Source of the DNA: Candidatus Parcubacteria bacterium | Lineage (GTDB): Bacteria > Patescibacteriota > Minisyncoccia > UBA6257 > 2-01-FULL-56-20 | Direction of reading: 5' to 3' | DNA length: 63,098 bases | Assembly: GCA_041169145.1 (NCBI GenBank) | Contig: JBEEJO010000001.1 | Span: 1 to 63,098 of the forward strand | Part shown: positions 13,901-62,297 of the stretch, piece by piece | How positions within the stretch are numbered: position 1 is the first letter of the stretch | Layout of the letters: each line of letters begins with the position of its first letter | Program-made: the position numbers and the translations under genes | Notes under the pieces: generated by a model | Seen by the model: the letters and a program-made list of their open reading frames with translations, nothing else | What the model was told of the DNA's origin: nothing | Databases searched by the model: none

Positions 13901-13910
13901 CATTGACGAC

Positions 13911-13985
13911 GCGCGGGTGGCGAAACCCGCCAGAGGCGGGCAAGCTGGCAGATTTAGCCGCCTTCGGCGGCCGCACTACCTTGAG
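13911..13985 (+). pseudogene. partial duplicate of tRNA-Leu(GAG): 5' half through the anticodon, interrupted by two GC hairpin inserts
   Basis: Blocks gcgcgggtggcgaaa, ctggcaga and gcactaccttgag are identical to 14236-14273. The inserts cccgccagaggcgggcaag and tttagccgccttcggcggcc each form a 6-bp hairpin. Confidence 0.8.
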
Positions 13986-13986
13986 A

Positions 13987-14229
13987 ATGGTAACAGTTTA
14001 TGTCATCAGAAGTTTAACGGGTAGTTTTAGATACGTCGGTATGACTGACAATTTGAAGCGTCGTTTGAAAGAACACAATTCTGGAAAAAGCAGAAGCACC
14101 CGAAGTTATGTGCCTCTCCGGCTAATCTATAGCGAAGATTGCAAGAATCGTATTCACGCCAGAGGCAGAGAGAAATTTTTAAAGAGCGGTGCTGGACGGA
14201 AGTTTCTTAATAATCTAGAATTTCGTTGA
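13987..14229 (+). CDS. GIY-YIG nuclease family protein (80 aa)
   Basis: VYVIRS...FRYVGMTDNLKRRLKEHNSG matches the GIY-(10-11)-YVG and R-x3-E-H-N core. The ATG sits immediately after the duplicated anticodon. Confidence 0.8.
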   Translation: MVTVYVIRSLTGSFRYVGMTDNLKRRLKEHNSGKSRSTRSYVPLRLIYSEDCKNRIHARGREKFLKSGAGRKFLNNLEFR

Positions 14230-14235
14230 GTAATT

Positions 14236-14319
14236 GCGCGGGTGGCGAAACTGGCAGACGCACTACCTTGAGGTGGTAGCGCCCGTAAGGGCTTGGAGGT
14301 TCAAATCCTCTCCCGCGCA
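14236..14319 (+). tRNA. tRNA-Leu (anticodon GAG), class II with long variable arm
   Basis: Acceptor gcgcggg/cccgcgc, anticodon arm ctacc-ttGAGgt-ggtag, T-arm ggaggttcaaatcctc, discriminator A, no encoded CCA. Confidence 0.9.
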
Positions 14320-14333
14320 CACAGAATCTTGCT

Positions 14334-15044
14334 ATGATCAAACCAATGAACCGCAACGGCTTCGCGCCAATCGTTATCCTAATCGTCGTCGTGGGAATTT
14401 TGGCTGTCGGTGCCGGAGGTTTAGCCATTCAAAAGGATGACGAAAATACGGTACTTAGACGACAAAATTACGCTCTAACCAACCAGGTCGACACTCTATC
14501 CAATCAACTTCAGCAACTTGCCGCTCAAAAACAGGTTATCACCCGAATCGAATCGCCAAAACAAGCTCCCTCGCCGACACCACAACCACCAGCTCCACCA
14601 AAACCATCCATTAATTCTTTTCAAATCGGTCAAGCATTTGACGTCGGTAGTATGCAATTTACAGTACTTTCGGCAGTCGACCTTGGAGGCCAATATCACT
14701 CAAATCGCACGACTGGTAAATACGTCGAAGTGACTTTTTCCGCAAAGAATATTGGCACGAATACTGCCTCTATCAACCCCGCTTATTACATACTCGATTC
14801 TCTAAATCGTCACTACGATACTACTGATTCTGTAATATATTATTCTCCACCAGATGGATATAAGCATTACTCAAGCTATCAAGGTCAGCCGGGTCCTTTT
14901 GGGCAGGATATGAGTTTGAACGATCTTAAACCCGGATTTACGCAAAGCTTCGGCTCACTTTTTGAAGTCGCAGCTGACTCTCAGGGCCTTACGTTATTGA
15001 TGGGGAAAGACAATAGCCCAAAGTATATTTCTCTTGGACTGTGA
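14334..15044 (+). CDS. membrane-anchored DUF4352-like protein
   Basis: N-terminal TM helix, coiled-coil/Pro-rich linker, then MQFTVLSA...KYVEVTFSAKNIGTNTASINPAYYILDS, typical of DUF4352 Ig-like domains. Looks more AT-rich than flanking genes by eye. Confidence 0.6.
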   Translation: MIKPMNRNGFAPIVILIVVVGILAVGAGGLAIQKDDENTVLRRQNYALTNQVDTLSNQLQQLAAQKQVITRIESPKQAPSPTPQPPAPPKPSINSFQIGQAFDVGSMQFTVLSAVDLGGQYHSNRTTGKYVEVTFSAKNIGTNTASINPAYYILDSLNRHYDTTDSVIYYSPPDGYKHYSSYQGQPGPFGQDMSLNDLKPGFTQSFGSLFEVAADSQGLTLLMGKDNSPKYISLGL

Positions 15045-15071
15045 CTATTAGGCTCTAATACCAGCTAAAAC

Positions 15072-15100
15072 AGTTCGAACATCGTCCCATCCCGCGCACA
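15072..15100 (+). repeat. tRNA-3'-end-like fragment: 21-nt core plus copy of the tRNA-Leu 3' terminus
   Basis: agttcgaacatcgtcccatcc (15072-15092) is identical to the reverse complement of 61891-61911. tcccgcgcaca (15090-15100) repeats 14311-14321. Confidence 0.75.
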
Positions 15101-61632: not shown

Positions 61633-61676
61633 AAATGCAATGCCCCACCGCGAGGGTGAGGTATTGCATTTTTTTG
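61633..61676. terminator. hairpin flanked by A/T runs (bidirectional terminator geometry)
   Basis: aaatgcaat...attgcattt outer stem with a GC inner stem, T7 on plus, TTTTCT on minus. Lies downstream of the 49-aa ORF. Confidence 0.5.
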
Positions 61677-61678
61677 TA

Positions 61679-61704
61679 TGCGCAGGGAGAGACGATGTTC
61701 GAAC
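61679..61704 (-). repeat. tRNA-3'-end-like fragment carrying the tRNA-Tyr 3' terminus
   Basis: Minus-strand gttcgaacatcgtctctccctgcgca. The last 11 nt are identical to the 3' end of tRNA-Tyr. The core is related to the 21-mer at 15072 and 61891. Confidence 0.65.
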
Positions 61705-61709
61705 GTACT

Positions 61710-61859
61710 TTATTTCTGCTTACGCGGAATAAGGTAAAGAAACCAAATGAACCAAAGAAGCCAGAGCATATCTTTCCAGTCTTGGGTAAATATCCCAGGA
61801 ATACCCAAAAGACCAAGAAATCCCAAAAGACCCAACATCCGGTTCTTATTCATATTCAT
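61710..61859 (-). CDS. hypothetical 49-aa membrane peptide (below the ORF-track cutoff)
   Basis: MNMNKNRMLGLLGFLGLLGIPGIFTQDWKDMLWLLWFIWFLYLIPRKQK has two hydrophobic helices. A terminator lies downstream. Confidence 0.4.
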   Translation of the reverse strand: MNMNKNRMLGLLGFLGLLGIPGIFTQDWKDMLWLLWFIWFLYLIPRKQK

Positions 61860-61881
61860 AGAAATATTCTACCACTGTTCT

Positions 61882-61911
61882 TGGTGCACCGGATGGGACG
61901 ATGTTCGAACT
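61882..61911 (-). repeat. tRNA-3'-end-like fragment ending in ...GGTGCACCA, with the identical 21-nt core
   Basis: Minus-strand agttcgaacatcgtcccatccggtgcacca. No matching 5' acceptor strand nearby. Confidence 0.65.
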
Positions 61912-61914
61912 AGT

Positions 61915-62004
61915 CTATCGAGTAAATAGATACCAAATACCAATCAAAGCAAGTATCACTAGAAGACCAATTGCCCTGCCGACATAAAACTTTCTGAGGT
62001 TCAT
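61915..62004 (-). CDS. possible 29-aa single-TM peptide
   Basis: MNLRKFYVGRAIGLLVILALIGIWYLFTR. Only composition supports it. Confidence 0.25.
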   Translation of the reverse strand: MNLRKFYVGRAIGLLVILALIGIWYLFTR

Positions 62005-62037
62005 ATGTAACAGTATAACAGTATCAAAACATCTTAG

Positions 62038-62169
62038 TGCGCAGGGAGGGATTGAACGTCGCTCGTCGCTATACAGCAACTCGCTCTCACGAACCCAGCG
62101 GTTCGTGTGCTCCGCCACGGGAAACCTCCCGGTTTCCCGACCCCATCCCCGTTCGAATCCCTCCTCTGC
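62038..62169. repeat. MITE-like palindromic element with tRNA-Tyr-derived inverted termini
   Basis: Left arm tgcgcagggagggattgaacg (a copy of the tRNA-Tyr 3' end with a 1-nt deletion). Right arm cgttcgaatccctcctctgc is its inverted copy. Two internal 8-9 bp hairpins. Confidence 0.6.
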
Positions 62170-62174
62170 AAGCA

Positions 62175-62207: not shown

Positions 62208-62213
62208 GGTGTG

Positions 62214-62297
62214 TGCGCAGGGAGGGATTCGAACCCCCGTAGGCCGTAGGCCGCCACGTTTACAGCGTGGTACAATTGACCGCTCTGTCACCTGCGC
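62214..62297 (-). tRNA. tRNA-Tyr (anticodon GUA), class II long variable arm
   Basis: Acceptor gcgcagg/cctgcgc, anticodon arm ccacg-ctGTAaa-cgtgg, T-arm gggggttcgaatccctc, discriminator A. Confidence 0.9.

Follow-up and report, generated by a model that had tools for sequence, protein, structure and literature searches.

Tail-like tRNA fragments in a Patescibacteria genome as probable attR junctions of large serine recombinase elements at tRNA 3' ends

Why do short sequences that resemble the 3' ends of tRNAs, one of them with an acceptor strand that belongs to neither tRNA gene nearby, stand apart behind tRNA genes and share one core? The question is raised by a stretch of 63,098 nt from a Patescibacteria genome (hereafter the window), for which an initial annotation had proposed either serial att-site remnants of a family of small integrative elements targeting tRNA 3' ends or a tRNA-end-mimicking repeat. 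The first of these readings is supported by a 5-nt register, by the polarity of the arrays in which the fragments stand and by genes of large serine recombinases (LSR) that contain the core. It is quite likely, as judged from sequence, that the fragments are attR junctions of LSR elements or cassettes integrated at tRNA 3' ends.

Tail-like fragments in the window and distribution of their core

Two real tRNA genes were found in the window, tRNA-Tyr(GTA) at 62213-62297 on the minus strand (ARAGORN; 55.6 bits with the Rfam tRNA model) and tRNA-Leu(GAG), the B-type site of a second array, at 14236-14320 on the plus strand (ARAGORN); at the fragments, no tRNA-like structure was detected with ARAGORN or the Rfam tRNA model. 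On the minus strand, positions 61679-61704 read gttcgaacatcgtctctccctgcgca (site 3) and positions 61882-61911 read agttcgaacatcgtcccatccggtgcacca (site 2). As the initial annotation had stated, the last 11 nt of site 3 (ctccctgcgca) equal the 3' end of tRNA-Tyr by sequence comparison, and the tail of site 2 has no counterpart, its matching 5' strand GCACCGG being absent from every tRNA of the window's genome. The 21-mer AGTTCGAACATCGTCCCATCC was likewise verified to be the same at 15072-15092 (+) and 61891-61911 (-). The small ORFs of 49 aa (61710-61859) and 29 aa (61915-62004), both on the minus strand, are present, and the AT-rich character of the stretch was confirmed, with a GC content of 0.40-0.43 over 61700-62099 versus 0.51-0.59 on either side.

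On the minus strand, tRNA-Tyr is followed by a terminator hairpin, a 130-nt structured element (62038-62170), the ORF of a 29-aa hydrophobic peptide without family match, which is the cargo of cassette 2, and the P-type site 2 (AGTTCGAACATCGTCCCATCCGGTGCACCA), the right end of this cassette, of composition A-GTTCGAA-CATCG-TCC-CAT-CCGGTGC-A-CCA. From site 2 (61911-61882) the order continues with the 49-aa ORF, the cargo of cassette 3, with a weak match to DUF3796, and with the P-type site 3 (GTTCGAACATCGTCTCTCCCTGCGCA, 61704-61679; GTTCGAA-CATCG-TCT-CTC-CCTGCGC-A), the putative outermost attR-type junction. Directly after site 3 stands a second, intrinsic-terminator-like hairpin (61637-61675, minus strand). 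On the plus strand, tRNA-Leu(GAG) is followed by one gene (14334-15046) for a membrane-anchored DUF4352 protein of 236 aa, the sole cargo of its cassette, and by AGTTCGAACATCGTCCCATCCCGCGCACA at 15072-15100, the P-type site 1 (A-GTTCGAA-CATCG-TCC-CAT-CCCGCGC-A-CA), whose tail is that of tRNA-Leu(GAG). Homologues of the 236-aa protein were sought as a tracer of mobility, and the protein proved to be an orphan within the family. Upstream, positions 13909-14230 (+) hold a copy of the 5' half of tRNA-Leu interrupted by hairpins and then an 80-aa GIY-YIG nuclease gene, followed by the intact tRNA-Leu(GAG).

The structured element at 62038-62170 (-) contains a third copy of the tRNA-Tyr tail (62038-62058), overlooked in the initial annotation. 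It is a protein-less mini-cassette with a conserved three-hairpin core and with inverted and direct copies of the tRNA-Tyr 3' end, which are B-type, without the 5-nt insert described below, and it belongs to a different element family. This family is multi-copy in the window's genome (further copies at C16:6806-6923, C24:955-1056, C3:9031-9098, C3:37815-37910, C33:8508-8614 and C4:15623-15670) and in all genomes of the same genus. The mini-cassettes measure about 130 nt. Three covarying hairpins are enclosed by two copies, one inverted and one direct, of the last ~21 nt of the neighbouring gene, and the arms differ from host gene to host gene (Tyr, Met, Ala, Thr); a mini-cassette standing where ftsZ ends re-encodes the last codons (LRRKKK and stop) using different codons. 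In the window's genome, the tail of at least 12 of the 44 tRNA genes recurs downstream of the gene, at a distance of 165-190 nt (as much as 664 nt for two of them), mostly due to these structured mini-cassettes. Most tRNA genes of this genome encode the discriminator and C74, and no CCA.

The core of the fragments is the 14-mer GTTCGAACATCGTC. Four matches at up to two mismatches were found in the window versus 0.9 expected, a number reached in no shuffle, and the repeat exceeds chance. The 814-kb genome contains four exact copies and one with a single mismatch (reversed control, 0 exact), and in the genome-wide search proposed earlier each of the five was found to follow a same-strand tRNA at a distance of 300-820 nt (Leu-GAG, Tyr twice, Leu-CAA and Val-CAC). 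Two of them had been overlooked, C3:8306 behind tRNA-Leu(CAA) and C19:11441 behind tRNA-Val, the latter with one mismatch. In the family, 43 exact copies are present in 24 of 125 genomes, patchily by genus (reversed control, 0), and the 14-mer is exact in these copies though their flanks are unrelated; in the same-genus genome G028, core copies carry 1-4 mismatches.

In the rest of the phylum the core was detected in 9 of 400 other sampled genomes (control, 1), and a genome scan of all species revealed P-type sites in the same register in Magasanikiibacteriota, Woesebacteria, Kaiserbacteria, Moraniibacteriota, Peribacteria and Saccharimonadia. At a locus of Peribacteria (L319:7218-7380), the P-type site stands just 36 nt after tRNA-Ser(GCT) and the 'cassette' is essentially without cargo. 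No tRNA or tail context was found at the first 80 of 120 exact matches in viral contigs, which were used as background; one background match, L085, was afterwards recognised as a genuine LSR attP.

Anatomy of the sites, arrays and cargo

The anatomy of the sites was derived from about 35 core copies in relatives, aligned to tRNA 3' ends. The site in the tRNA gene (B-type) consists of G53-TTCGAA-T60CC-nnn, the 7-nt acceptor 3' strand, the discriminator and C, and the fragment (P-type) of GTTCGAA-[C/G/T]ATC[G/A]-TCC-nnn, 7 nt, N and C. In about 35 P-type and 19 left-boundary B-type sites, the fragment is the tRNA 3' end plus a 5-nt insert, [C/G/T]ATC[G/A]. When insert lengths from 0 to 12 were compared with all tRNA tails of the genome, the core sites were recovered only at length 5; at two mismatches the comparison was too noisy to decide the matter. 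The 3' end of tRNA-Tyr(GTA), GTTCGAA-TCC-CTC-CCTGCGC-A, is without insert; it is an unmodified B-type site, the start of the array and the left half of attL.

The inner part of the fragments tracks particular tRNAs: copies behind tRNA-Gln retain CCAAG-CCCGGCA-G, and other tails are like those of Tyr/Leu, Ser, Gln-UUG and Pro. Many P-type tails differ from the local tRNA, and direct repeats of 10-17 nt of the tRNA tail border several cassettes. Several relatives have a terminator hairpin with a T run immediately 5' of the core, and in several a TTGACA...TATAAT promoter begins a few bases 3' of the tail; a unit with both forms a cassette that runs from promoter to terminator, with a DNA site at its end. 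Other candidate structures at the core were discarded: a T-arm hairpin is without complementary strand, a 20-bp palindrome around TTCGAA fails to match on its left side, a crossover within the T-loop leaves CATCG unexplained, and the resemblance to a dif/Xer-like site (TGCGCATA) is by chance only.

The layout of the arrays was studied in 20 regions of relatives, of 8-20 kb each. The array starts with a real tRNA in 10 of the 20 and with a stand-alone B-type fragment in five; the core sites of the other five have no recognisable B-type site upstream, one of these being cut by the contig end. After the B-type start follow one to four cassettes, each closed by a P-type site, and all further junctions are P-type. 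The stand-alone fragments (GTTCGAA-TCC-nnn-acceptor, without tRNA body) form the left array border at L204:7536 and 12562, L205:6692, L208:7479, L211:6973 and L220:7416; the start in L208 reads AAAACT-GTTCGAA-TCCTGCCCCGTGCAC, and the same sequence with CATCG is found 0.5 kb further on. One possibility is that these fragments are decoy or landing-pad attB sites. One stand-alone fragment stands directly after ftsQ.

Cassettes measure 0.2-4.5 kb. Their cargo in the window's genome comprises a DUF4352 protein, a DUF3796-like peptide, HNH_3 with a small membrane protein, and isochorismatase, and in other genomes PLD nuclease or Fic genes and one five-gene cassette of 4.5 kb. In 19 of the 20 regions, a tblastn search with the genome's own LSR and tyrosine recombinase found no recombinase up to 8 kb from the core. 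A conserved P' half was sought at the left ends of the cassettes and was not found, so that a canonical attP with two half-sites is not reconstructable for the cassettes. Close relatives in which such a site is empty or filled were not found, the genomes of the same genus being about 75-80% identical.

Serine integrase genes across the core

In the published model of LSR sites, the ZD motif stands 5 bp further out in attP, at positions 16-24, than in attB, at 11-19 (Rutherford et al. 2013, PMC3783163), and by this shift LSRs tell attP from attB (PMC3783163). With all P-type sites aligned, the shift of register between P-type sites and tRNAs is 5 bp, as in this rule.

Read on the opposite strand, the core encodes DDVRT. 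When opposite-strand frames through the core were ranked among all fetched loci, three of the ranked frames were long LSR frames ending 14-58 codons after DDVRT: L085, a viral contig, whose frame ends ...LLGDLDDVRTYGYKASRAAALIYAHFKKEF...; L313, an Abditibacterium genome, with the frame antisense across the core; and L265, a Saccharimonadales genome, with the frame across the core and also a second, tail-only remnant. The proteins of L085 and L313 have the Pfam domains Resolvase, Recombinase and Zn_ribbon_recom. A pattern of core, 18 nt and GGACGA gave six matches in the window's family and none in the control. One of the six is G008 (L387), a contig with a close relative of the L085 integrase (tail ...GQGNDVRTLMKKAERAAALIYAHFKKEF...), whose frame crosses a core with one mismatch that encodes NDVRT. 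Integrase-bearing contigs with the core, which the initial annotation had suggested looking for, are at hand as four intact LSR genes crossing the core antisense (L085, L313, L265 and L387). These data identify the putative enzyme class as large serine recombinase and the core as a putative attP-type half-site.

It is very unlikely that the fragments are instead attR remnants of tyrosine-integrase islands (Islander/tycheposon), with the repeat T60..C74 as identity block and the core as adjacent element arm. Tandem accretion with partial tRNAs is known for such islands, the 10-17-nt direct repeats of the tRNA tail at several cassettes would agree with them, and the window's genome has one tyrosine recombinase, on another contig, next to tRNA-Leu(TAG). 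However, the exact 5-bp displacement of the repeated T-loop motif is left unexplained, no tyrosine recombinase was found near the 20 arrays, the core lies within LSR genes and not within tyrosine-recombinase genes, many tails mismatch the local tRNA, and the fragment has a 5-nt insert where a plain direct repeat of the target would be expected.

The LSR reading gains from the symmetry of the sites. The three intact attP sites (L085, L265, L313) form a dyad, GTTCGAA-CATCG-TCC-(18 nt)-GGA-CGAxG, with 10-13 symmetric matches of 24; at the five core copies of the window's genome the count is at chance level, 6-9 of 24. With its centre between acceptor positions 6 and 7, the dyad sets GTTCGAA at 18-24 in P-type sites and at 13-19 in the tRNA, the outer motif edges of 24 and 19 being the edges of the published LSR model. 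From the symmetry of these three attP sites, the crossover would lie between acceptor positions 6 and 7.

The chance is slim that the core is kept only as coding sequence, as a remnant of integrase 3' ends without site function and with an incidental likeness to tRNAs. DDVRT is encoded in intact LSRs, and the sequence changes seen in the 5-nt insert are either synonymous or result in V/L/I/F; in the window's family, however, the frame comes to a stop 5 to 38 codons beyond DDVRT, in unrelated sequence, and yet there are 43 exact copies. Moreover, nnn and acceptor follow particular tRNAs (e.g., CCAAG-CCCGGCA for tRNA-Gln), and the dyad partner GGA-CGAxG stands at a fixed 18 nt. Membership of the core in a conserved coding frame of relatives, which the initial annotation would have held against att remnants, was thus literally found in the form of DDVRT in the integrase tail; since the integrase gene spans its own attP, it fits the att reading and explains it rather than refuting it.

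In distant cassettes, a 37-codon frame beside the core resembles LSR tails by eye (AAIAYFQKKE / ALIYAHFKKE / SIYHFFKKE), with 85, 62 and 149 differences at codon positions 1, 2 and 3, respectively. The 37-aa tail peptide retrieved just short frames across 400 Patescibacteria, and a 66-aa version of the tail found one match among 5.8 billion proteins, so gene callers ignore the frame. In distant Patescibacteria families, the cassettes behind tRNA-Leu at L231, L234 and L235 (PLD nuclease) and L232 (Fic) have their cargo transcribed antisense; it begins directly after the integrase-tail remnant, with a Shine-Dalgarno site and an ATGA overlap, and the old tail frame may be a leader for the cargo gene.

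A second LSR subfamily, with frames of 516-640 aa, lies antisense against tRNA 3' ends and reads into the tRNA in 9 of 12 fetched loci of the family. At tRNA-Ser, -His and -Asp its frame is the DDVRT frame (..RKDSN.., ..RESD.., ..PDLN..), which shows that the tail of the integrase is exchanged on integration. No P-type site was found when the attR of eight tRNA-abutting LSR elements of the family was sought within 20 kb (8 kb for one contig), and a search of viral contigs with a family LSR gave no related loci. Serine integrase frames run antisense into the adjacent tRNA gene at L367-L377 (genomes G066, G009, G057, G013, G054, G068, G111, G072 and G053), so that the protein receives a tail encoded by the tRNA, and one of these frames passes right through the tRNA gene; conserved P' sequences stand after the tRNA, e.g., ..TTCAGAAAAATT..GCCGCGCTTCGCGGAGCGAAGCG... 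At L236 (G011:C1), an LSR-containing island of 16.5 kb has as its boundary a 19-nt direct repeat of the tRNA-Glu(CTC) tail without the 5-nt insert, at +16582 from that tRNA, and given this B-type repeat more than one integration system may use tRNA ends.

The window's genome has a single LSR, of 498 aa, at C2:9583-11079 (region C2:9583-11281), antisense beside tRNA-Ser(GGA). It is a paralogue, 35% identical to L085, that ends about 115 nt before tRNA-Ser(GGA) and does not span the site; no far end of its element was found within 11 kb, and the core and an orthologue of this LSR occur together in just 1 of 30 loci. Since the genome's only LSR is a paralogue without a spanned site, the cognate enzyme is probably missing from the 92%-complete assembly.

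It is highly improbable that the cassettes were spread by tRNA-cutting homing endonucleases (GIY-YIG, HNH, LAGLIDADG, PLD), with the modified tail as a cleavage-resistant copy. Nuclease genes are frequent around these tRNAs, as seen in the GIY-YIG gene adjoining tRNA-Leu, the HNH_3 gene that stops 6 nt before the core at C3 and the PLD nucleases in distant cassettes; most cassettes, however, are without nuclease, and the insert is constant in sequence and register across the classes, and lies within LSR genes. A role of the fragments as RNA, as tRNA-end mimics acting as processing or CCA-adding signals on cassette transcripts, has next to no chance despite one copy ending in CCA and the likeness to T-loop and acceptor strand, as the fragments are without 5' partner strand and without tRNA-like structure by ARAGORN or Rfam, and the terminator hairpin with T run just 5' of the core in several relatives would leave them mostly untranscribed. 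This terminator, and the promoter just 3' of the tail in several relatives, speak against the second proposal of the initial annotation.

Reading of the window sites, known systems and meaning

According to the LSR reading, GTTCGAA-CATCG-TCC would be the P half-site of the element's attP, imitating the T-loop-to-acceptor segment of the tRNA, which would be the B half-site of attB. In terms of the published model, the five extra bp between the T-loop motif and TCC would move the zinc-ribbon-domain motif of attP outward by half a helical turn relative to attB. The integrase gene of autonomous elements crosses attP antisense, the same bases encoding DDVRT in its C-terminal tail, and this double duty as site and coding sequence is likely one reason for the low variation of the 14-mer. 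Repeated insertion at a tRNA would push older cassettes outward and would result in the layout tRNA, cassette, P-site, cassette, P-site, original trailer.

Because the second half-site is missing at the window's copies, all three fragments are taken as attR-type scars, composed of the P arm and whatever stood to its right. Site 1 closes the single cassette behind tRNA-Leu. In the array behind tRNA-Tyr, we infer that the oldest junction is site 3 (61679-61704); the C-A-TAC and the terminator that follow the centre of this site are probably the original tRNA-Tyr end, and the hairpin at 61637-61675 probably represents the original trailer and terminator, displaced by the insertions. On the basis of the attP dyad, the tail of site 2, CCGGTG followed by CACCA, is best read as a chimera of an arm mimic and CACCA from the end of the next cassette, its P arm CCGGTG being two mismatches from the Tyr/Leu type. 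Such a chimera of the P arm and the left end of the 49-aa cassette would explain the tRNA-less tail without an unknown tRNA. The earlier claim that one core is joined to the acceptor strands of three tRNAs holds as to the identity of the 21-mer, whereas a crossover between acceptor positions 6 and 7 would make the acceptor-like stretch mostly the element's own target-imitating arm.

The sites resemble those of the Listeria A118/LI integrases (PMC3783163), in which a zinc-ribbon-domain motif is common to attB and attP and stands 5 bp outward in attP, with motif edges at about 24 and 19, attP is an imperfect dyad, hybrid attL and attR arise after integration, and the enzyme consists of Resolvase, Recombinase and Zn-ribbon domains. 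Unlike in that system, attB is here the T-loop-to-acceptor end of many tRNA genes, a segment that the P arm copies base for base, the integrase gene spans attP, and most copies belong to integrase-less cassettes in which no P' half can be recognised. With tycheposons and Islander tandem islands (bioRxiv 10.1101/2020.12.28.424599; PMC4383910) the arrays share integration in series at a single tRNA, newer units pushing older ones outward, partial tRNA copies between the units and a variable, adaptive cargo. Those elements carry their own integrase, a tyrosine recombinase in 910 of 937 and an LSR in the rest, and are kilobases long (10.1101/2020.12.28.424599; PMC4383910), in contrast to the units described here, which measure 0.2-4.5 kb, are integrase-less and are marked by a modified (+5) tail and not by a plain partial tRNA.

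As in integron cassettes and CALINs, small and mostly single-gene units with one conserved recombination site at the 3' end form arrays and accumulate at one fixed entry site, the recombinase being encoded elsewhere or absent. Here, however, the units enter at a tRNA gene, the sites follow serine-recombinase logic, and several relatives have a promoter directly after the tail and a terminator before the core. Neither of the two integron features tested was found: an inverted partner of the core, as in an attC-type hairpin, is absent from the 35 aligned sites, and an IntI-type tyrosine recombinase is absent near the entry sites of the 20 arrays. The SSV1-type integrases of archaeal viruses are tyrosine recombinases whose gene contains attP, targets tRNA genes and is split by integration. 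Here, too, the recombinase gene spans its own attachment site at tRNA genes, so that integration alters the end of the gene; unlike in the SSV1 type, the serine recombinase only exchanges its last ~10-60 codons.

Two origins of the cassettes are possible, either as deletion derivatives of integrase-bearing elements or as units moved in trans with a minimal site. Function or recent arrival of the cassettes is favoured because the 14-mer is exact in 43 copies with unrelated flanks, and decay because the core copies of G028 carry 1-4 mismatches. It is a tentative and rather doubtful suggestion that the integrase-less cassettes form a working gene-cassette system of Patescibacteria, comparable to integrons, with serine integrases supplied in trans from autonomous elements; promoter-to-terminator units with only the P half-site could in that case be captured at tRNA genes and at the stand-alone tRNA-tail 'landing pads', and be stacked and shuffled there.

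The sites represent a natural, family-wide case of the LSR site rule, in which the attP arm is the attB arm plus 5 bp, written in tRNA-tail sequence. With the signature of T-loop motif, 5 nt and TCC, integrase sites can be located, as can the borders of islands and cassettes, in genomes of organisms that are hardly ever grown in culture. Integrases with a tRNA-derived half-site and target-specific inner positions could help the understanding and retargeting of serine integrases used in genome engineering. For the reduced genomes of Patescibacteria, the data show small, stacked expression cassettes to make up a large part of the variable DNA behind tRNA genes and, if these cassettes move in trans, they would constitute an integron-like system built on a serine recombinase.
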